Position numbers and translations under genes: made by a program
Notes under the pieces: model-generated
What the model was told of the DNA's origin: nothing
Seen by the model: only the letters and a program-made list of their open reading frames with translations
Databases searched by the model: none
Shown: piece by piece, positions 3,562 through 45,482 of the stretch
Layout: each line of letters opens with the position of its first letter
Position numbering within the stretch: position 1 is the stretch's first letter
Assembly: GCA_041497495.1 (NCBI GenBank)
Contig: JBGQGR010000001.1
Coordinates: 1-45,482 of the forward strand
Direction of reading: 5' to 3'
Length of the DNA: 45,482 bases
DNA from: Anaerolineae bacterium
Lineage (GTDB): Bacteria; Chloroflexota; Anaerolineae; Fen-1058

Positions 3562-5229
3562 ATGGCATTGAACCACAAAGCATTGATCATCGGTCTTGAC
3601 GGCGCAACGTGGACATTATTACGCCCGTGGATCGATCAAGGTCATTTGCCTAACCTCGCGCGTTTGGTTAACGAAGGCGCGTCTGGCCCATTGACGACCA
3701 CGATCCCGCCGGTGTCCGCCTCGGCCTGGGTGTCGTTTGCCACGGGCTGCAATCCGGGCAAGCATGGCGCGTTCGATTTTGTGTTTCCACAGCCGGGCGG
3801 TTACGATATCGGCGTGATCAATGTGAAGGTGCGCGGCGTGCCGCCGTTCTGGAAATCGATCGAAGAGGCGGGCGGGCAAGTGGGCTTGATGAGTGTGCCG
3901 ATCACGTATCCGCCGCAGCCGATCAACGGTTTCACGGTCAACGGTTTTCTGGTACCGAATGAACAATCGGCTTATACGTACCCACCCGAACTTAAAGAGG
4001 AGTTGAAGCACAATGGTCAGCGTTGGCCGCTGCACGAGTTCGAAGGCAATCGATCGCGTCATCCGGGACGCTTCTTGCAGGACATGCTCGACTTCGACGT
4101 GACGCGCACCGACACGATCGTGTGGTTGATGCAGCACAAACCGTGGGATACCTTGGCCTGTGTATTGAAGACACCGGATACCGTGCAGCATGAACTGTGG
4201 CACATCATCGATCCGACGCATCCGCGTTACGCGGCGGAACTCAATCGACAGTTCGCGCCGGCGGTGCTGGACTACTTCAAGAAGATCGATGAGTGCGTCG
4301 GCCGCATCATCGCCGCCGCGCCGCCTGAGACCTTCGCCGCCATCATGTCCGATCACGGCGGCGGGCCGTTCCACAAATTCTTTCACGTCAACAACTGGCT
4401 CGCTCAGCAGGGTCTATTGAAGTTTAAGCGCGCGCCGTTGAGTATGATCAAGCGCGCATTGTTCAAACTCGGCTTCACGCCGATCACTTCATTGAAGATC
4501 GTCAACTTGCTGCGCTTAGGCCGTTTGCGCAGAAGAGTGAAGCGCGGTCGAGGCCGCGGCATGTTGAAGCGCTTCTTCTTATCATTCGGCGATGTCGACT
4601 GGTCGCGCACCAACGCTTTTGCGGTCGGCAACTTCGGACAGATCTATATCAACTTGAAGGGCCAGCGTTCGCAAGGCATCGTCGAGCCGGGCGTGGAGTA
4701 CGAGGCCGTTCGGGATCAGATCATCCGATCGGCGTTAGCGCTGCGCGATCCGGACGGCGGCGATCAAGTGATCGCGGCAGTGTACAAGAAGGAAGAGTTG
4801 TATCACGGCGATCGAGTTCCGGTCGCGCCCGATCTGATCCTGCACACCGATCGATCCAAGTACGTTTCATTCGGCCACGCCGACTTCGGATCGAACAAAT
4901 TATTGGAGGCGAGCGTCGGCCAAACCGGACATCACACGATGGACGGCATCGTCGTCCTGCACGGCGAAGGCGTGCGGCCGAAGACCGGAATCAAAGGCAA
5001 TATCATCGACATTGCGCCAACGGTGTTGTATGCATTGGGACTGCCGATTCCAGCGATCATGGATGGACAAGTCATGCAATCGGCTTTCAGCGCTGAGTAT
5101 TTAGCCGCTCATCCCATCGTCCGGGCCGCCGCCGATGAGTCCGCTTCAAGCGGATCGACCCATGCGTATTCCGAAGAAGATGAAGCGCAGGTCATGGATC
5201 GCTTGCGCGAGTTAGGCTATGTAGCGTAA
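3562..5229 (+). CDS. Alkaline-phosphatase superfamily protein, type I phosphodiesterase / nucleotide pyrophosphatase (NPP)-like
   Basis: ATG start. The N-terminus ALIIGLDGATW...LPNL..L...G....L.TTIPPVSASAW.SFATG..PGKHG is typical of the Phosphodiest/NPP family, and a later DHGG block also fits. No signal peptide is obvious. Confidence 0.75.
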   Translation: MALNHKALIIGLDGATWTLLRPWIDQGHLPNLARLVNEGASGPLTTTIPPVSASAWVSFATGCNPGKHGAFDFVFPQPGGYDIGVINVKVRGVPPFWKSIEEAGGQVGLMSVPITYPPQPINGFTVNGFLVPNEQSAYTYPPELKEELKHNGQRWPLHEFEGNRSRHPGRFLQDMLDFDVTRTDTIVWLMQHKPWDTLACVLKTPDTVQHELWHIIDPTHPRYAAELNRQFAPAVLDYFKKIDECVGRIIAAAPPETFAAIMSDHGGGPFHKFFHVNNWLAQQGLLKFKRAPLSMIKRALFKLGFTPITSLKIVNLLRLGRLRRRVKRGRGRGMLKRFFLSFGDVDWSRTNAFAVGNFGQIYINLKGQRSQGIVEPGVEYEAVRDQIIRSALALRDPDGGDQVIAAVYKKEELYHGDRVPVAPDLILHTDRSKYVSFGHADFGSNKLLEASVGQTGHHTMDGIVVLHGEGVRPKTGIKGNIIDIAPTVLYALGLPIPAIMDGQVMQSAFSAEYLAAHPIVRAAADESASSGSTHAYSEEDEAQVMDRLRELGYVA

Positions 5230-5236
5230 AGTCCAC

Positions 5237-5319
5237 GTCATTGCGAGGGCGAAGCCCGAAGCAATCTCCCGATCGATCTTGAGATTGCTTCGTCGGCCTT
5301 ACGGCCGCCTCGCAATGAC
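5237..5319. repeat. Nested-palindrome REP/MITE-like element, copy A
   Basis: Outer inverted repeat GTCATTGCGAGG (5237-5248) / CCTCGCAATGAC (5308-5319). Inner inverted repeat CGAAGCAATCTC (5257-5268) / GAGATTGCTTCG (5281-5292). The same cores occur at 8509..8677 and 34590..34696. Confidence 0.85.
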
Positions 5320-5340
5320 ACCTACAAATTTTAGGTGTCA
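5316..5340. other. 9-bp hairpin TGACACCTA-(7 nt)-TAGGTGTCA just upstream of the TTG start at 5346
   Basis: Perfect inverted repeat read directly. It shares the TGACACCT arm with the inverted repeat at 18257..18305. Confidence 0.6.
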
Positions 5341-5345
5341 CCTAT

Positions 5346-8300
5346 TTGCAATCTCCTTCTTCGCCTCAGCGTTCTATCTCTCCAGCGCTCATTCTGCTCA
5401 GCAGTCTGATCTTTCTGCTCGCGCTTCTGGCGCGCCTCGGCGCGATCGATCGCTACGTCACGCCTGACGAGCTGCACTGGGTCGATCGATCGATCCGCTT
5501 CACCGATGCGGTTACGCATGGCAAGTGGGCGGACACGATCCAAAGCGGCCACCCCGGCGCGACGACAATGTGGCTCGGCTCGCTCGGCATCACGCTTCAA
5601 CATCTGAGCAATCCCGCCCTTCCACTGCCAAACACCTCGATCGATTTCTCTCCGCAAAACGCCGACGCGATGCGCGCGCTGGCAAAATTTCTTGACGCGG
5701 CACGACTGCCCGTTATTCTCGTCACTTCATTCAACATCACTTTGTTGTTCGTGCTGCTCAGCCGCAAGATCGATCGACGCGCGGCGTTTCTGGCCGCCGG
5801 ATTGATCGCGCTCGATCCATTTGGCGTCGCGTTGGGCAGCATTTTGCATGTCGATTCGCTTTTAGCGACTTTCAGCCTCGTTTCAATTGCAGCAGTGTTC
5901 ATTGCGATCGATCATCCACGACCGACACGCTGGTTGATCACATCGGGCGTGTTGGCGGGTCTGGCCGCACTGAGCAAATCACCCGCGATCGTTTTGGGGC
6001 CAATGACATTCATCATCCTCGCGATCAATGTTTGGCGGCAGCATCGATCGATCGGTCGCTTCATTCGAGCGTTTTTCATCTGGGGTATCTGCGCCTCGAT
6101 CGTTTTCTTCGCACTGTATCCGGCGATGTGGGTCAACCCGCTCACCGCGCTGGGCCGCATGGCCGCCACGGCTGAAAAGTTCGGTGAGCTCGCGCACGCG
6201 GTCAATTATTTCTTCGGCAGCCTCGATCGTAATCCCGGCCCACTGTTCTATCCCGTCGTCATTGCATTTCGATCGACGCCGATTCTCTGGGTCGGATTGA
6301 TCGCAATAGTCCCGTTGATCTTTCGGATGCGAACAAATATTGAGAAGAGTCTGCGCTCAAATGCCCTGCTCTATTTTCTGTTTGTAATCTTGTTCATTGG
6401 GCTGATCACGATCGGCGCGAAGAAACTCGATCGCTACTTGTTTCCGGCTTTGTTGGCACTAGATATCATCGGTGCGATGGGGCTGGCTTACGCGATCGGG
6501 TCGATCACCGATCGGTTAAAGAATCGATCGAGAGTTGCAACATTGATCGCAATTGGAGCCTGCTTCGCCATCGCCTCGATCCAATTCATGGACGTGTGGC
6601 CGCTGACCCTTCGAGCATACAATCCGTTATTGGGCGGATATAACGGTGCGAGCCGCGCACTGCCCGTCGGTGGCGGCGAAAGCGCAGAAGTAGGTGAAGC
6701 ATTAGCTGCATCAGCCTTCGCGTCAAAAGTAATTGCAGTCAGCGACATCGTCGGCACCGCACCATTCTTTCCGGGCAAGTTAGTGCCGAACGACGAAGCG
6801 GGTCTTGCGCGCGCCGATTATTTGTTGTTCAACGCATCAGATTTTCAACTCACGCCCAGTGTGCCGAAACAATGGATCGGATCAGCGTCGCCCGTGATGA
6901 CGTTCACCGTGCAGAATCAAAATTTCGCGTGGTTGTATCCAAATCAATGGCTGGCTGTCGATCGACAGCGTTTGATCGATCAACGCCAGGCAGGCGATGC
7001 ACTCATCACCGATTATGCGGCGGCGCTGCCCACTCAATCGGATGATCCGACGATTGTGTTGGCGGAAGACATCAGCGAAGCGGCTGCGATCGATCGCTTG
7101 AATCGCGTGGCTCAATCGCATTCGCGCATCTTCTTCATTCATTACGCGACCAGCCGCGATCCGACGAGCATTGTGGTGACCCGCCTGCTCGACACATTTG
7201 CGATCAAAGTGAATGACTGGTCATCGCCATTGAGCAGCGGCGCGTTGTATGTGCTGCTGAAAAATATTTCGTTCAAGGCTGAACCGACAGAATTGAACGC
7301 CAACGCGACATTTGGCGATCGAGCGCAATTGGCGCAAGCGCAACTTGTTTTGTCGCACGTGCAGCCCGGCCAATCGATCGGCTTGAACACCCAATGGATT
7401 GCCTCACTACCTGAATCACAATTGTTCGTGTCGCTGATCGATGATCGAGGTCACACGTGGAACCAGATCGATGATCGCGTGCCCGCCAGCGACAGCGGCA
7501 ACACGCAGCGCGCCAAGCGCCTCAGCCTGCCCGTGCCGCCTGTCACGCCGCCAGGCATTTATCAATTGAAGCTAAACGCCATCGATCTGGCGAGCGGCGG
7601 TCCGCTCAGCATTCAATCTGCGGACAATCATTTCGCCGGATTCGATTGGCTGCTGGGCTCGATCACAATCGATCCGGCACAGGTACAGATCGATCCCGCC
7701 ACACGCCAGCCCGCGATCGAGATCGATACCGATCTCGGCGGTCTGCATGCGATCGGATCGGATGCGCCGCCCGATCCGATCATAAGCGGTGATCCGTGGA
7801 CGTTGTCGATGGAATGGGCGTCAGGTGTAGAACACTTGTCGAACTTAGATGTTGCGTGGCTGTTGGTTTCAAACAATCAGATCGTTTACTCGACCACGCT
7901 GTCGCTTAACTCTTATTCGACCGATCATTGGCGCAGAGGTGATGTGCTGCAAAGCAAATATGATTTCCGTTTGCCGATCACGATCACTGCTGGCAAATAC
8001 GATCTCAAATTTAAGTTAGTCGATCATCTAACTAACCAGGCCTGGCATGCACAAGCCGTGCAACTGACATCCGTGAATCTGTCATCACGCCCGCGAGATT
8101 TTACTGCCCCAACGGTTCAATATCCAAGCGACGTTCAATTTGGCTCGATGGCAACTCTGCTCGGCGCGAACGTGCTTCAGTCCGATCAAGTATTGACCGT
8201 CACTTTGATCTGGCAGGTGAATCAGATCACGACGACGAATTACAGCACCTTCGTGCAAATCATCAACGGCGAACAAGTCGTCAAGCAGATCGATAACTGG

Positions 8301-34704: not shown

Positions 34705-35466
34705 TTACATTTTTTCGACTTGCAAGAAATCCAACTCGACGGGCGTCTCGCGTCCAAAGAACGACACCAAGATCCGCACCTTTGCTTTGTCCATGTTGAT
34801 ATCGTCGACCGTGCCCATGAAATCGTTGAACGGCCCATCGACGATGCGAACTTTTTGGCCGGGCTTGAAAGTGACTTTGACTTTCGGCGCTTCGGCTTCC
34901 ATGCGCTTGAGAATACCGGACACTTCTTCCGTGCGCAGCGGAGTGGGCTTGTTGCCCATGCCGACGAAACCGGTGACGCCCGGCGTGTTGCGCACCACGT
35001 ACCAGGAATCGTCGTTCATCACCATCTGCACCAGAATGTAGCCGGGGAACACGCGCTTCTCAACCGTGCGGCGCTTGCCTTCTTTAACTTCGATCTCTTC
35101 TTCGGTCGGCACCACGATCTGGAAAATCTGGTGAGCCATGCCCATCGATTCGATGCGCTGCTCCAGATTGTGTTTTACTTTGTTTTCATAGCCGGAATAG
35201 CAGTGCACGACGAACCACGCGCGCTCATCGGGCGCTTCGCTGAGATCGGGTGCGCCTTCCGACGAGACGGCTCGCATAGCCGACGTGCGCAGCTCGCGCA
35301 GTGTCGCTTTGACGTCCTCGGCATCAGACGGCAGATCGATCACCGGCTCTTCGATGGGTTCATCGGCCGGAAGCTGATCTTCGATCGGTTCTAGCTCGAT
35401 CGGCTTTGCGGGCTGATCGGATTCGATCGACATCATTTCTTCCGGCAGGGTTGCTTCATCCATCAT
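34705..35466 (-). CDS. nusG: Transcription termination/antitermination factor NusG with an ~85-aa acidic N-terminal extension
   Basis: NGN domain WFVVHCYSGYENKV....E.......... and KOW domain FKPGQKVRIVDGPFNDFMGTVDDIN.DK.KV.V.V..FGR.TPVEL.F.QVEK. Confidence 0.95.
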   Translation of the reverse strand: MMDEATLPEEMMSIESDQPAKPIELEPIEDQLPADEPIEEPVIDLPSDAEDVKATLRELRTSAMRAVSSEGAPDLSEAPDERAWFVVHCYSGYENKVKHNLEQRIESMGMAHQIFQIVVPTEEEIEVKEGKRRTVEKRVFPGYILVQMVMNDDSWYVVRNTPGVTGFVGMGNKPTPLRTEEVSGILKRMEAEAPKVKVTFKPGQKVRIVDGPFNDFMGTVDDINMDKAKVRILVSFFGRETPVELDFLQVEKM

Positions 35467-35476
35467 CCAAACTCAC

Positions 35477-35761
35477 TTATTGTCGGCGCAGGTTGATGAC
35501 CAATACAACCAAGCCGATCACTGAGGCAACCAGTGCGATGACAATGCTCACCGTATCGCGATCGACCAGCACACCTTTCAATAAGGTGGAGGCAATCTGA
35601 TCGAACACGAACAGAATAATAGCCATGGCCACCGTCACAGCCAACACAACTGTCGTCAGGTTCTTCGCCTCGGTGCGATTGGGCCAATTGACTTTCTTCA
35701 ATTCGGCGCGTGTTTCTTTGAAGTAATGAACTACGCGATTATCTTGTTTGACGTCCGCCAC
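35477..35761 (-). CDS. secE: Preprotein translocase subunit SecE (94 aa, with an extra C-terminal hydrophobic helix)
   Basis: GTG start with GAGGAG upstream. Motif YFKETRAELKKVNWPNRTEAKNLTTVVLAVTVAMAIILFVFD. Conserved position between tRNA-Trp and nusG. Confidence 0.9.
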   Translation of the reverse strand: MADVKQDNRVVHYFKETRAELKKVNWPNRTEAKNLTTVVLAVTVAMAIILFVFDQIASTLLKGVLVDRDTVSIVIALVASVIGLVVLVINLRRQ

Positions 35762-35856
35762 GATTGAGTGACTCCTCTTAACTCGTCAGGCTGCGCCGCT
35801 GCGCTTTCAAAACTATTGGCCGCGCCCGATCGATCTCGCGCGGCTCAATCATCAGG

Positions 35857-35929
35857 CAGGCCAGGCAGGACTTGAACCCGCAACCCCGCGTTTTGGAGAC
35901 GCGTGCGCTACCAATTGCGCCACTGGCCT
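35857..35929 (-). tRNA. tRNA-Trp (anticodon CCA), 73 nt, 3'-CCA not encoded
   Basis: Minus-strand read: AGGCCAG TG GCGC AATTGGTA GCGC A CGCGT CTCCAAA ACGCG GGGTT GCGGG TTCAAGT CCTGC CTGGCCT G. It folds as a cloverleaf (7/4/5/5-bp stems, one G-U pair) with the anticodon loop CT-CCA-AA. Confidence 0.93.
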
Positions 35930-36539
35930 ATAACTTACCATCAAGTAAATCATTTATCCAAGACATCATCAGCGACTTGAGCCTTGAATCGTGAAACCTG
36001 ATATGCACAGTGCCATACAAACTACGCTGCCCTCGTTGATCTCCCCATGCCGTTCTGCCTTTTTTCAAGGTGGGGTGTTCAAAATTCTCCGAAGGCACTC
36101 CTAACTCACCTGACCAGAAATTCAACAGCGTTGAGTATTCCATATCTTCGTAATAGTCAATGTGCGCTTTAAGTTTTTTAGACGACACACTGCATACTAT
36201 TTCAAGAAACCGAACCCACAACTTCAGGGTACGAGGATCGCTGTTGGTAAGAATCAATGATGGATTTGTTTTGTCGCCCTCGCCTAAATATAGAGCCACT
36301 CCCGCTATGAATAGATCGCGGTTGCTTAAATCGATTTTGAATTTCTCGCCGTCAGGATTGTGCTTCAGATAACCTGCTTCGCTTTGACGGCGACGCTGCA
36401 AACCATATCGATCCATCCAATACGAGACTTTGTGGTAAGAAACGTCTAAACGATCAGCGATCTGTTGGGCCGACTGGCCTTGCTCAAAGTAAAGCTGTTG
36501 TAACAGCTCATGGCTGATCGGCTCGCCCCGCTTGAGCAT
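35928..36539 (-). CDS. HTH + LAGLIDADG-like (putative homing-endonuclease-like) protein inserted between rpmG and tRNA-Trp
   Basis: 203-aa ORF. N-terminal HTH-like LLQQLYFEQGQSAQQIADRLDVSYHKVSYWMDRYGL. One LAGLIDADG-type motif, DLFIAGVALYLGEGDK. Sampled 60-nt blocks run about 33-52% GC, against about 55% in the flanks. No CGATCG in 612 nt. The stop codon overlaps the tRNA 5' end by 2 nt. Confidence 0.6.
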   Translation of the reverse strand: MLKRGEPISHELLQQLYFEQGQSAQQIADRLDVSYHKVSYWMDRYGLQRRRQSEAGYLKHNPDGEKFKIDLSNRDLFIAGVALYLGEGDKTNPSLILTNSDPRTLKLWVRFLEIVCSVSSKKLKAHIDYYEDMEYSTLLNFWSGELGVPSENFEHPTLKKGRTAWGDQRGQRSLYGTVHIRFHDSRLKSLMMSWINDLLDGKL

Positions 36540-36560
36540 GGAAATGCTTCACGCTATCCG

Positions 36561-36725
36561 CTACTTCGTTTCCTTGTGCAGCGTATGCTTGCGGCAATGT
36601 CGGCAAAACTTGTTGAATTCCACGCGGCCCGGATCATTGCGCCGATTCTTCTGCGTTGTATAGTTTCGATTCTTGCATTCGGGACACGCCAGTGTCACGA
36701 CATCACGCACATCTTTCTTAGCCAT
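36561..36725 (-). CDS. rpmG: 50S ribosomal protein L33 (zinc-ribbon form)
   Basis: Absent from the ORF track because it is under 60 aa. My own translation is [54 protein letters not shown], with the CxxC...CxxC pattern and GAGAGAGG upstream. Confidence 0.9.
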
Positions 36726-36781: not shown

Positions 36782-37984
36782 TTAATCCGCGACCTTGGTA
36801 ATGACGCCCGCGCCGACGGTCAAGCCGCCCTCGCGAATCGCAAAGTGGCCGCCCGCTTCCAGTGCCACCGGCGTGATCAACTCCACACTCATCTTGATGT
36901 TGTCGCCCGGCATCACCATCTCCACGCCCGCCGGTAAGGTGATCGTGCCCGTCACGTCCAACGTCCGAATATAGAACTGCGGCCGGTAACCACTCACGAA
37001 CGCTTTGTGCCGTCCGCCTTCTTCCTTCTTCAACACGTACACTTCCGCTTCAAACTTCCGGTGCGGCTTGATCGAGCCCGGCTTGGCTAACACCATGCCG
37101 CGCTCCACATCCGTGCGCTCGATGCCGCGCAGCAGCAGACCCGCATTGTCGCCGGCTTCGGCATCGTCCAACGTCTTGTGGAACATTTCCATCGAGGTCA
37201 CGACCGTGTCGCGCACTTCATCGCGCAAGCCGACGATCGAAACGGGATCGCCCGGTTTGATTACGCCCCGATCGACGCGGCCGGTCACAACCGTGCCACG
37301 GCCTTTGATCGAGAACACGTCTTCAACCGACATCATGAACGGCTTGTCGGTCTCGCGCTTCGGCGTCGGGATGTATTTGTCGACGACGCGCATCAAATCC
37401 CAGATCGGCTTGTAGGCCGGAGCATTCGGATCGGTGCTCGGTTCGTTCAACGCTGCCAGCGCGCTGCCCCGCACGATCGGCGTCTCATCGCCCGGAAAGC
37501 CGTAGCCGTTCAGCAGTTCGCGCAGTTCCAACTCCACCAGTTCGAGCAGTTCCGGATCGTCCATCATGTCGACTTTGTTCAAGAAAACGACAATGGCCGG
37601 CACTTCCACCTGACGCGCCAGCAGCACGTGCTCGCGGGTCTGCGGCATCGGGCCATCAGGCGCGGCCACAACCAGAATCGCGCCATCGACCTGCGCGGCG
37701 CCGGTGATCATATTTTTAATGTAGTCGCGGTGACCGGGCATGTCGACGTGGGCATAGTGCCGCTTCTCGGTCTCGTATTCGACGTGGGCAATGTTGATCG
37801 TGATGCCGCGCTCTTTTTCTTCCGGCGCATTGTCGATCGAGTCGAACGAGCGGAACGTGGCCAGTTTCTTCAGGCCCAACGTTTTGGTGATGGCCGCCGT
37901 CAAGGTGGTCTTGCCGTGGTCGATGTGACCCATAGTGCCGACGTTCACGTGCGGTTTGCTGCGATCATAGTGCTGCTTCGACAT
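36782..37984 (-). CDS. tuf: Elongation factor Tu
   Basis: [62 protein letters not shown] Shine-Dalgarno. Confidence 0.97.
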
Positions 37985-44300: not shown

Positions 44301-45241
44301 TGCTGATTCACACCCAAGCGCTGATTCAACTTGTAACGGCCGACGCGCTCCAAATCATAGCGGCGCCGATCGAATAACTGATCGCGCAAATAACTGCGCG
44401 CGTTATCCAATGTAGGCGGATCGCCCGGGCGCATCTTGCGATAGAATTCCAGCAAGGCCTCTTCCGCAATCGTTCGCTTATCGCGTGGTTCAAGATTGCC
44501 TTCCTGCCGGATCGTCGTCAGGATGTATTGATGATCAGGGTTGTTGTCGATATGCTCAAATAGCTGCAGGATTTCATCGTCCTGCCCGGTCTTCAATAGA
44601 TCGCTAGAAGATCCGTCATCGATAGCTGCCAATGCGCGCAGTAAGATGGTGACCGGAATGGTGCGCTTGCGATTAAACTTTAAAGTAATATAATCACTCT
44701 TGCGCGTTTCGAATTCCATCCACGCGCCGCGATCAGGAATGACCTTGGCCTGGGCCAGCACGCGGCCAGAGGAGAGATCCGGGTCGGCATCGAAATACAC
44801 GCCGGGCGATCGAATCAACTGCGATACAACGACACGCTCCGTACCGTTATAGATGAAAGTGCCATTCTCGGTCATCCATGGGAATTCGCCGAGGAAGATA
44901 TCGTTGACCACGTGCTCGTTGGTTTCTTTGTTAACCAACGCCACTTTAATGTAGAGACCGCGGGCAAAAGTGAGATCGCGCTCTAAGCATTCCTTTTGAT
45001 TGAACTTGGGCTCTTCAAACCAAAAACTCAGTCCGAACTGTTTGGCTTCAGGGCTGTCGCCGGGGAAATACAGTTTCAATGAGCCATTGAAACTATCGAT
45101 CGGTGATACTTCATCGAAGAGTTCGCGCAGGCCTTGATTAATGAACCAGTTAAAGGAGTTGAGCTGAATTTCGATGAGGTTGGGCAGTTGATGTAAATCG
45201 GGAATGCGGGCATAAGTCTTGGCGGCAAGAGTTCGAGTCAT
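41330..45241 (-). CDS. rpoB: DNA-directed RNA polymerase subunit beta (1303 aa) with a lineage-specific insertion
   Basis: Canonical blocks: RSPGVYF, GNRRV...[24 protein letters not shown]-like [85 protein letters not shown]. Confidence 0.98.
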
Positions 45242-45280
45242 TCAGTAGCTCCTATAAGGTAATGAAGGTAGCAAACGCAA

Positions 45281-45304
45281 CTAAGGGGATAGCAATCCCC
45301 TTAG
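45281..45304 (-). other. 9-bp hairpin in the rpoB 5' leader (CTAAGGGGA-TAGCAA-TCCCCTTAG)
   Basis: Perfect inverted repeat about 40 nt upstream of the rpoB ATG and downstream of the predicted promoter. Confidence 0.5.
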
Positions 45305-45347
45305 TGAATAGCGTTACTTTACAGTTTTTCGCAGACAGCAAAAGAAC

Positions 45348-45376
45348 ATTCTACAACGTAATGAGGATTCTGTCAA
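45348..45376 (-). promoter_or_regulatory. Sigma-70-type promoter candidate for rpoB: TTGACA-17 nt-TAGAAT
   Basis: On the minus strand, TTGACA is at 45376..45371 and TAGAAT at 45353..45348, with a 17-nt spacer, in an AT-rich region about 105 nt upstream of the rpoB ATG. Confidence 0.6.
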
Positions 45377-45482
45377 CAAGCAAAATCGAGGTTTTTTCAA
45401 TTCGCGTTAAGTTCCGATTTACTCTGTAGTTCAAAACTATCAGACAAATTCACCCATCGCCACTTCACTTCAACAAGAGCGA

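Follow-up and report, generated by a model that had tools for sequence, protein, structure and literature searches.

A 203-residue open reading frame between rpmG and tRNA-Trp of an Anaerolineae bacterium belongs to a large tRNA-adjoining family of putative homing endonucleases

The 45,482-nucleotide (nt) stretch of DNA from an Anaerolineae bacterium analysed here (the whole of it is called the window) carries an open reading frame (ORF) of 203 amino acids (aa) that fills the gap between rpmG and tRNA-Trp in a core translation operon. The ORF is one member of a large, undescribed family whose genes adjoin tRNA genes, more than one odd ORF. With moderate confidence we read it, from comparative evidence, as a free-standing, tRNA-linked, homing-endonuclease-like selfish gene encoding a predicted nuclease. 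The original prediction, made from this DNA alone, had proposed a free-standing selfish or domesticated endonuclease. That proposal stands as far as the gene is real, foreign and sporadic, has a homing-type DNA-binding module and has viral relatives in tRNA arrays; the nuclease family is not demonstrated.

A first search with the ORF protein returned 25 homologues of about 203 aa (60–93% identity), none with a name or a Pfam domain, and a profile search added 250 further, more distant relatives. A profile of the C-terminal domain, run against a database of 1.84 billion representatives, matched 4,917 clusters (formed at 50% identity) at E ≤ 1e-3 and 3,184 at E ≤ 1e-10. These relatives are spread over Chloroflexota, the Candidate Phyla Radiation (CPR), Elusimicrobia and tRNA arrays on viral contigs. 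The ratio of nonsynonymous to synonymous substitution rates (dN/dS, omega) was 0.04–0.09 in comparisons between lineages; with a 96%-identical relative whose arrangement is the same and whose tRNA is identical, it was 0.20. These values indicate that the ORF is a real gene under purifying selection; a spurious ORF is ruled out by omega of 0.04–0.20 and thousands of homologues. The family is large and unannotated, its members being labelled only “hypothetical protein”. Pfam, NCBIfam, PHROGs and PADLOC recognised nothing in the ORF protein beyond an N-terminal helix-turn-helix (HTH), and no description of the family or of the ORF–tRNA arrangement was found in the literature. An anti-phage defence gene was also considered and set aside, as no PADLOC model matches the window protein. 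Seven longer proteins of 400–576 aa (P0245, P0278, P0303, P0310, P0329, P0332 and P0382) contain two copies of the C-terminal domain, with several HTH matches in at least P0382. They are either tandem genes joined by gene calling or single-chain double-domain forms.

We also compared the neighbourhoods of family members. Chloroflexota metagenome-assembled genomes (MAGs) of the Thermoflexales and Anaerolineales have the order rpmG–ORF–tRNA-Trp–secE–nusG, as in the window. Members of a CPR subfamily of 220 aa are found immediately 5′ of tRNA-Trp, in some neighbourhoods without rpmG or secE, and a subfamily at 33–43% identity lies directly 5′ of tRNA-Thr(GGU) in Saccharibacteria, Elusimicrobia and other MAGs. 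At 56 of 80 metagenome loci a same-strand tRNA (Thr-GGU at 54, Trp at 2) begins between −30 and +60 nt from the point where the protein match ends. The stop codon falls inside the tRNA at 41 of 56 distinct junctions, and eight ORFs extend 37–105 nt into it, five of them spanning the whole tRNA. About 20 of the 80 loci are without a downstream tRNA; most of these have tRNA-Thr(UGU) or tRNA-Tyr just upstream. Relatives in IMG/VR (33.7–93 bits to the domain profile, 9 of 11 at 51.7 bits or more) are placed within tRNA arrays, where they overlap tRNAs of both strands. Across these loci the conserved unit is the ORF plus its tRNA (Trp or Thr-GGU, in any neighbourhood) and not the rpmG context. The tRNA seems to move or co-evolve with the ORF, and specialisation of the family on tRNA genes is the best explanation. 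The idea that the rpmG/tRNA-Trp spacer is a conserved intergenic target had to be dropped, because the tRNA partner is kept while the neighbourhoods are unrelated.

Several arrangements were recorded along the way. The ORF reads through the entire tRNA-Thr gene in L009 (4998–5669), L040, L041, L069 and L070, with overlaps of 93–105 nt. The IMG/VR contigs (L018–L029, 84–497 kb) carry dense tRNA arrays, with as many as 8 tRNAs in 2.7 kb and family members lying between the tRNAs, and in L018, L022, L024, L026 and L027 the 3′ ends of ORFs overlap opposite-strand tRNAs. A Daviesbacteria MAG (L010) has two paralogues, a truncated one after a tRNA (4944–5432) and a full one of 222 aa (6129–6797); the same pair is found in L091. 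The full copy in L010 lies between rpmG and tRNA-Trp with a 15-nt tRNA overlap, which is the position seen in the window but in a different phylum. Decayed copies, truncated or interrupted, exist in L104, in L105 and as the first paralogue of L010. Directly 3′ of the ORF-linked tRNA-Trp of a CPR genome (L016, 4683–5071; L017, 795–1183) we observed a 53-aa ORF and a 90-aa GIY-YIG gene, the latter being a second homing-endonuclease-type gene at the same CPR tRNA-Trp.

A comparison of the rpmG–tRNA-Trp spacer in related genomes, which had been named as a check on the original prediction, revealed the empty site. The five closest host relatives (NusG identity 78–90%) have rpmG, a spacer of 85–118 nt, tRNA-Trp and secE, and no ORF. 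They are represented by six ORF-less loci (L110, L111, L112/L114, L115 and L117). By L11, L1, L33 and NusG these genomes are nearer to the window host than any ORF-bearing genome: identity to the host is 70–90% for L1 and 81–93% for L11 in the ORF-less genomes, against 61–68% for L1 in the ORF-bearing ones. Of 200 bootstrap neighbour-joining trees, all 200 placed the window as the sister of ORF-less L111, all 200 nested it within the ORF-less clade, and 0 recovered the ORF-bearing genomes as monophyletic. The ORF is therefore polymorphic for presence and absence at a homologous site, as a free-standing homing endonuclease gene is. An ORF conserved throughout the lineage with host-like composition, the pattern that would speak against such a gene, was not what we found: it is sporadic and its guanine-plus-cytosine (GC) content is low.

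The tRNA gene next to the ORF departs from its surroundings as well. Among the ORF-less genomes, tRNA-Trp genes show 0–3 differences at 80–94% host identity, versus 11 differences between ORF-linked tRNAs at 82–89% host identity. The window and L111 differ at 14 of 73 tRNA-Trp positions at 90% host identity; among the changed positions are the 5:68 acceptor pair and two pairs of the anticodon stem, each of them compensated. The closest matches to the window tRNA-Trp are those of ORF-bearing L007, L030 and L001 (7–9 differences). DNA identity between the window and L111 is 84–89% for tuf, rpmG, nusG, rplK and rplA, 74% for secE and 81% for tRNA-Trp. In rpmG (98% aa and 89% nt identity) the two are near identical up to the stop codon and then diverge; past the stop, the window resembles ORF-bearing L003 (GC[G/A]GATAGC...). 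On the other side, an inverted repeat (GCCGCGC...GCGCGGC) located 3′ of the tRNA and before secE is shared by the window with ORF-less L110, L111 and L112, but ORF-bearing L001 and L003 do not conserve it. Within the secE–nusG leader it may serve in processing or attenuation. Since rpmG to its stop codon and the region 3′ of the tRNA are host-like, the discordant block consists of 21 nt, the ORF and the tRNA. Together, these results suggest that this block, as read from the alignments, has had a history different from that of the flanking rpmG and secE.

Two scenarios fit these data. In one, a single loss was followed by re-acquisition of an ORF-plus-tRNA cassette by the window lineage. In the other, the ORF was retained there with fast change of the tRNA, and three losses all kept the same tRNA. 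Both tie the evolution of the tRNA to the ORF. The rpmG/tRNA-Trp spacers of ORF-less L110 (about 440–460) and L112 (about 300–320) hold a GGTGTATAAT element, extended −10-like, approximately 40–60 nt upstream of tRNA-Trp. A promoter scan, which detected no consensus promoter within the ORF or in the ORF-less spacers, misses this element because it has no −35. The TGTATAAT-like element of these two spacers is a reading of the alignment only; ORF-bearing loci are without the spacer that holds it.

The ORF is compositionally foreign. Its GC content is 45.6% versus 55.0% for the window, where 0.3% of 612-nt segments reach a value as low, and it lies 4–14 points under the GC of the locus in 7 of 7 ORF-bearing genomes. 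The low GC noticed at the outset is thus real, although its 60-nt blocks run from 37 to 57% and not from 33 to 52% as first read. The only other equally GC-poor stretch of the window, 44800–45482, covers the 5′ end of rpoB together with the sequence that precedes it. CGATCG, a palindrome over-represented genome-wide, is found 179 times in the 45.5 kb (about once per 254 nt). Its absence from the ORF, also pointed out before, is correct as a count (0 against 2.4 expected) but is not significant alone (Poisson P about 0.09).

The N-terminal HTH that had been suspected in the protein is real. AlphaFold2 (AF2) places helices at aa 10–19, 24–31, 35–44 and 52–59. The match is weak in Pfam (HTH_23 at E 6.7e-5, under the gathering score) and clearer in PHROGs, where aa 10–57 match phrog_7545 at E 1.8e-10 and the module also matches phrog_8446 at 1.3e-7, both named “HNH endonuclease”. 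In tblastn searches, HNH endonucleases of haloviruses match the HTH at E 2e-3. Other families matched at the level of the HTH are HTH_7, HTH_Tnp_IS630 and HTH_SB, the IS630 match reaching 17.9 bits versus a cut-off of 100. Among GenBank phages the HTH alone finds matches; the C-terminal domain was not found in isolated phages. The closest resemblance of the HTH is to the DNA-binding module found in HNH homing endonucleases from phages and from viruses of haloarchaea.

The C-terminal domain was modelled with AF2 within the full-length protein (predicted local distance difference test, pLDDT, 82.6) and separately with a 109-sequence alignment (pLDDT 89.5, predicted template modelling score 0.83). 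Its predicted topology is a-b-a-b-a-b-b-a. The conserved residues are E87, G88, K90, N99, S100, D101, W142, F153, K159, G176 and D184. Three of four family alignments have E87 in every sequence and the fourth has it in at least 90%; K90 is either invariant or reaches at least 90%, and both are conserved in the 109-sequence set. E87 and K90 are candidate catalytic residues, and the extra conserved polar residues N99, S100, D101, K159 and D184 would fit an enzyme active site.

A LAGLIDADG-type motif and fold had been proposed for this domain. The motif LYLGEGDK does lie at the end of a helix and there is a sub-threshold link to I-DmoI, but Pfam and the PDB folds gave no support. No Pfam LAGLIDADG family matched the window protein or five distant relatives at E ≤ 10. 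None was among the 25 most-matched of the 118 families hit by 109 members at E ≤ 1, and at E ≤ 0.01 ten long two-copy members matched HTH families only. The gathering scores of LAGLIDADG_1/2/3 and LAGLIDADG_WhiA were not reached by the proteins tested. The closest approach was by a viral member (L023, 81 bits to the domain profile), which scored 20.1 bits with LAGLIDADG_3 (E 7.7e-4; cut-off 22.5). Foldseek comparison of the AF2 models with the PDB gave no LAGLIDADG structure among the 50 matches listed. Against BFVD, the best matches include intein-bearing and LAGLIDADG proteins (E 0.04–0.9, template modelling (TM) score about 0.4, probability up to 0.99). When the family profile was compared with the PDB, I-DmoI was the best match outside the HTH proteins (E 0.02–0.2), the only other one being weaker and unrelated, and with the domain-only profile it ranked top, in 7 of 8 matches (E 0.02–0.2). 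The profile alignment pairs LY(L/W)GEGxK...N(S/T)D with LYVAEGDKT...N(K) of I-DmoI, so that E87 and K90 pair with E117 and K120, below significance (E 0.02–0.2; hhalign P 0.0018). In I-DmoI, E117 and K120 are catalytic, and both are lost in the non-nuclease WhiA (PMC3384342). The hhalign comparison with I-CreI was not significant, though the strand-helix-strand register was sensible, and a direct sequence search against solved structures returned only a chance match to a glutathione transferase (GST) at E 1. All LAGLIDADG similarities are thus sub-threshold, and membership of that family is not established. The domain is probably a remodelled LAGLIDADG with a minimal first hairpin and an insertion of about 45 residues before the last strand.

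The features of the locus, whose genes are all on the minus strand, are collected in Table 1. The size of the ORF, its place 21 nt after rpmG and the sharing of two bases between its stop codon and tRNA-Trp agree exactly with the original prediction. Because the TAG spans the tRNA start at 35929, its A and G are tRNA nucleotides 1–2. A six-frame hidden Markov model search found a single copy of the family in the window. The Rfam scan of the whole window yielded tRNA-Trp as the sole RNA family and the tRNAs are of normal length, so that here too no intron or intein context is seen. NusG has an acidic, Pro/Glu-rich N-terminal extension of approximately 85 aa before its NGN domain, and the length of this extension differs widely among close relatives (proteins of 185–345 aa).

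Table 1. Features of the rpmG–nusG locus, with positions in the 45,482-nt window.
Feature	Position	Strand	Remark
rpmG (L33)	36561–36725	minus	host-like left flank
Gap from rpmG stop to ORF start, 21 nt	36540–36560	minus	left edge of cassette
203-aa ORF, ATG start 36539, TAG stop 35930–35928	35928–36539	minus	ORF call
tRNA-Trp(CCA)	35855–35929 (ARAGORN); 35857–35929 (Rfam)	minus	
secE	35477–35761	minus	downstream of tRNA-Trp
nusG	34705–35466	minus	after secE; followed by rplK, rplA
tuf	36782–37984	minus	upstream of rpmG, with fusA
HTH module, aa 10–59, three or four helices	36363–36512	minus	AF2, Pfam HTH_23, PHROGs, tblastn
C-terminal alpha/beta domain, aa 60–203	35931–36362	minus	AF2 domain model, invariant columns
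LYLGEGDK motif, aa 83–90, C-terminal end of helix 74–87	36270–36293	minus	
GC-rich inverted repeat just 3′ of tRNA-Trp	35819–35844		host-like right flank

LAGLIDADG homing endonucleases make site-specific double-strand breaks with 4-nt 3′ overhangs. In the mechanism we propose for the ORF, the HTH would bind DNA and the C-terminal domain, probably a much-modified LAGLIDADG-type nuclease, would cut. The protein would recognise and cleave an ORF-less allele in or beside the tRNA gene, and repair from the ORF-bearing copy would introduce the ORF along with the cleavage-resistant tRNA variant that belongs to it. Such co-conversion would replace the resident spacer and tRNA. As for co-transcription with the translation genes, proposed earlier, the ORF is indeed co-oriented with its neighbours and a promoter or terminator would not fit on either side; given the 21-nt gap and the lack of a consensus promoter, we infer that it is transcribed by read-through from tuf–rpmG, without its own promoter. 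RNase P would then free the tRNA from the shared transcript and thereby remove the stop codon of the ORF. It is possible, though doubtful, that the family as a whole represents a widespread and unrecognised class of selfish elements in which an endonuclease gene is fused to an essential tRNA gene as the mobile unit and spreads by putting its own resistant tRNA gene in place of the resident one. If so, tRNA stems in Chloroflexota, CPR, Elusimicrobia and viral tRNA-array contigs would be driven to evolve unusually fast, with compensated changes. With the stop codon inside the tRNA, each RNase P maturation would leave an endonuclease mRNA that lacks a stop, and host tRNA processing would then throttle expression of the selfish gene. 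The catalytic domain would in that case be either a LAGLIDADG that has been strongly remodelled or a nuclease fold of a new kind.

Several observations weigh against a selfish homing endonuclease. Purifying selection that matches that of ribosomal proteins is unusual for a purely selfish gene, and a family of approximately 4,900 clusters could be near-universal in some CPR lineages, which would suggest that it serves the host. Among ORF-bearing genomes, the identity of the ORF rises and falls with that of the host (72/71, 76/73, 89/78 and 99/97), and the ORF tree of the seven ORF-bearing genomes is roughly host-like, which fits long vertical descent with losses as well as homing. Between the window and L118, dN is 0.157 for the ORF versus 0.274 for L1 and 0.194 for L11, the window ORF being somewhat nearer to the others than its L1 and L11 are. 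The window tRNA could have diverged in place instead of being imported, and the low GC of the ORF in every ORF-bearing lineage may partly be a contrast with highly expressed neighbours. The C-terminal domain has no Pfam, NCBIfam or PADLOC match. The topology known for LAGLIDADG proteins is a-b-b-a-b-b-a, from which the a-b-a-b-a-b-b-a predicted here departs. Foldseek searches of the PDB with both AF2 models gave nothing at E ≤ 0.001, the top matches being the unrelated folds YfiB and IspF (TM about 0.3–0.4).

Some of these observations would be expected of a domesticated, WhiA-like DNA-binding regulator, which would bind near the tRNA/secE–nusG control region, regulate the operon and be inherited vertically with repeated loss. 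We consider such a regulator unlikely. The parallel divergence of ORF and host, the roughly host-like tree, an omega as low as that of NusG, L1 and L11, a position in the core operon fixed over order-level distances and the very large size of the family all agree with it. So does the disappearance, in ORF-bearing loci, of the spacer with the TGTATAAT-like element, since the tRNA and secE must be expressed in another way there. Yet the closest relatives of the window host manage without the ORF, and across phyla its partner is a tRNA gene in any neighbourhood, and in viral tRNA arrays, rather than this operon. The GC content is atypical in every lineage, and vertical descent requires three independent losses that end with the same tRNA sequence. 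A WhiA-like gene would be uniformly present and would have lost its catalytic residues, as domesticated WhiA has; this gene is sporadic and conserves the E and K aligned to I-DmoI E117/K120.

The overlap with the tRNA could instead reflect a role at the RNA level. The protein would process, protect or modify its own transcript or the pre-tRNA, or the overlap would couple ORF translation to tRNA maturation. Some LAGLIDADG proteins are RNA maturases, the same-strand, head-to-tail order dominates in cellular genomes, and the frequent stop codons inside the tRNA and the ORFs that run far into or through it would be natural in this case. We find such a role improbable all the same: the 3′ ends of ORFs on viral contigs often overlap opposite-strand tRNAs, which fits targeting of DNA and not co-transcription, the roughly one quarter of metagenome loci with upstream tRNAs only lack a downstream partner, the N-terminal module is a DNA-binding HTH of the homing-endonuclease kind, and no tRNA intron or unusual tRNA feature was found. 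A further alternative, in which the ORF encodes a small recombinase or transposase that is site-specific, has a novel catalytic domain and integrates at tRNA genes, we regard as very improbable. In its favour, integration at tRNA genes is a classic pattern, the Pfam HTH matches are mostly of the transposase/resolvase type (HTH_23, HTH_7, HTH_Tnp_IS630 and HTH_SB), and the E, D, D and K that are conserved might bind a metal. Integrases, however, normally use the 3′ ends of tRNA genes whereas the ORF abuts the 5′ end, no recombinase or transposase catalytic domain was matched, and there are no direct repeats, att-like tRNA duplication or cargo, the unit being the ORF plus its tRNA. A transposon or insertion sequence was rejected because neither terminal inverted repeats nor a target-site duplication flank the ORF and the transposase matches are confined to the HTH.

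The selfish-gene reading gives a large, unannotated family a testable role, as the members are proposed to be tRNA-gene-directed endonucleases in hosts that are hard to study (CPR and Anaerolineae-like Chloroflexota) and on viral tRNA-array contigs. Selfish genes may account for those single-copy tRNA genes that are far more variable than the genomes carrying them, and they could persist stably within core translation operons. If the proteins are nucleases, they would offer scaffolds of about 200 aa with long tRNA-based recognition sites. For annotation, gene callers will often mis-end the ORFs of this family because the stop codon is inside the tRNA.

Among known systems, the HNH homing endonucleases of phrog_7545 and phrog_8446 have an N-terminal HTH in common with the ORF protein, which fits the module shuffling typical of homing endonucleases. 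The ORF protein differs in having no HNH domain, and the similarity is confined to aa 10–62. Its C-terminal domain recalls that of I-DmoI in a helix ending ...LY(L/V)(G/A)EGDKT, a strand ending in N and then a helix. Unlike LAGLIDADG enzymes, it is predicted to have a very short first hairpin, a helix-plus-strand insertion of approximately 45 residues between the last two strands, and it conserves the additional polar residues listed above. A homodimer would be expected, because the protein has a single domain. WhiA/DUF199, a domesticated LAGLIDADG plus HTH regulator of Gram-positive bacteria (PMC3384342), likewise combines a LAGLIDADG-like domain with an HTH in a cellular gene that is neither in an intron nor in an intein. 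WhiA, however, has two LAGLIDADG domains and a C-terminal HTH and is universal in its lineage, whereas in the ORF family, which is sporadic, the domain is single, the HTH is N-terminal and the aligned E and K are retained.

The closest documented analogue is SegB of phage T4, a homing endonuclease encoded in a tRNA cluster that recognises the tRNA TpsiC motif, drags neighbouring tRNA genes along and erases the markers of the recipient (PMC2330249). SegB is a GIY-YIG protein of a phage, whereas the ORF encodes another domain and resides in a core translation operon of a bacterial chromosome, where it is fused to one tRNA with its stop codon inside. In both cases a free-standing gene, for an endonuclease in T4 and for a predicted one here, adjoins tRNA genes, and here too the gene and its tRNA seem to share a history unlike that of their flanks.

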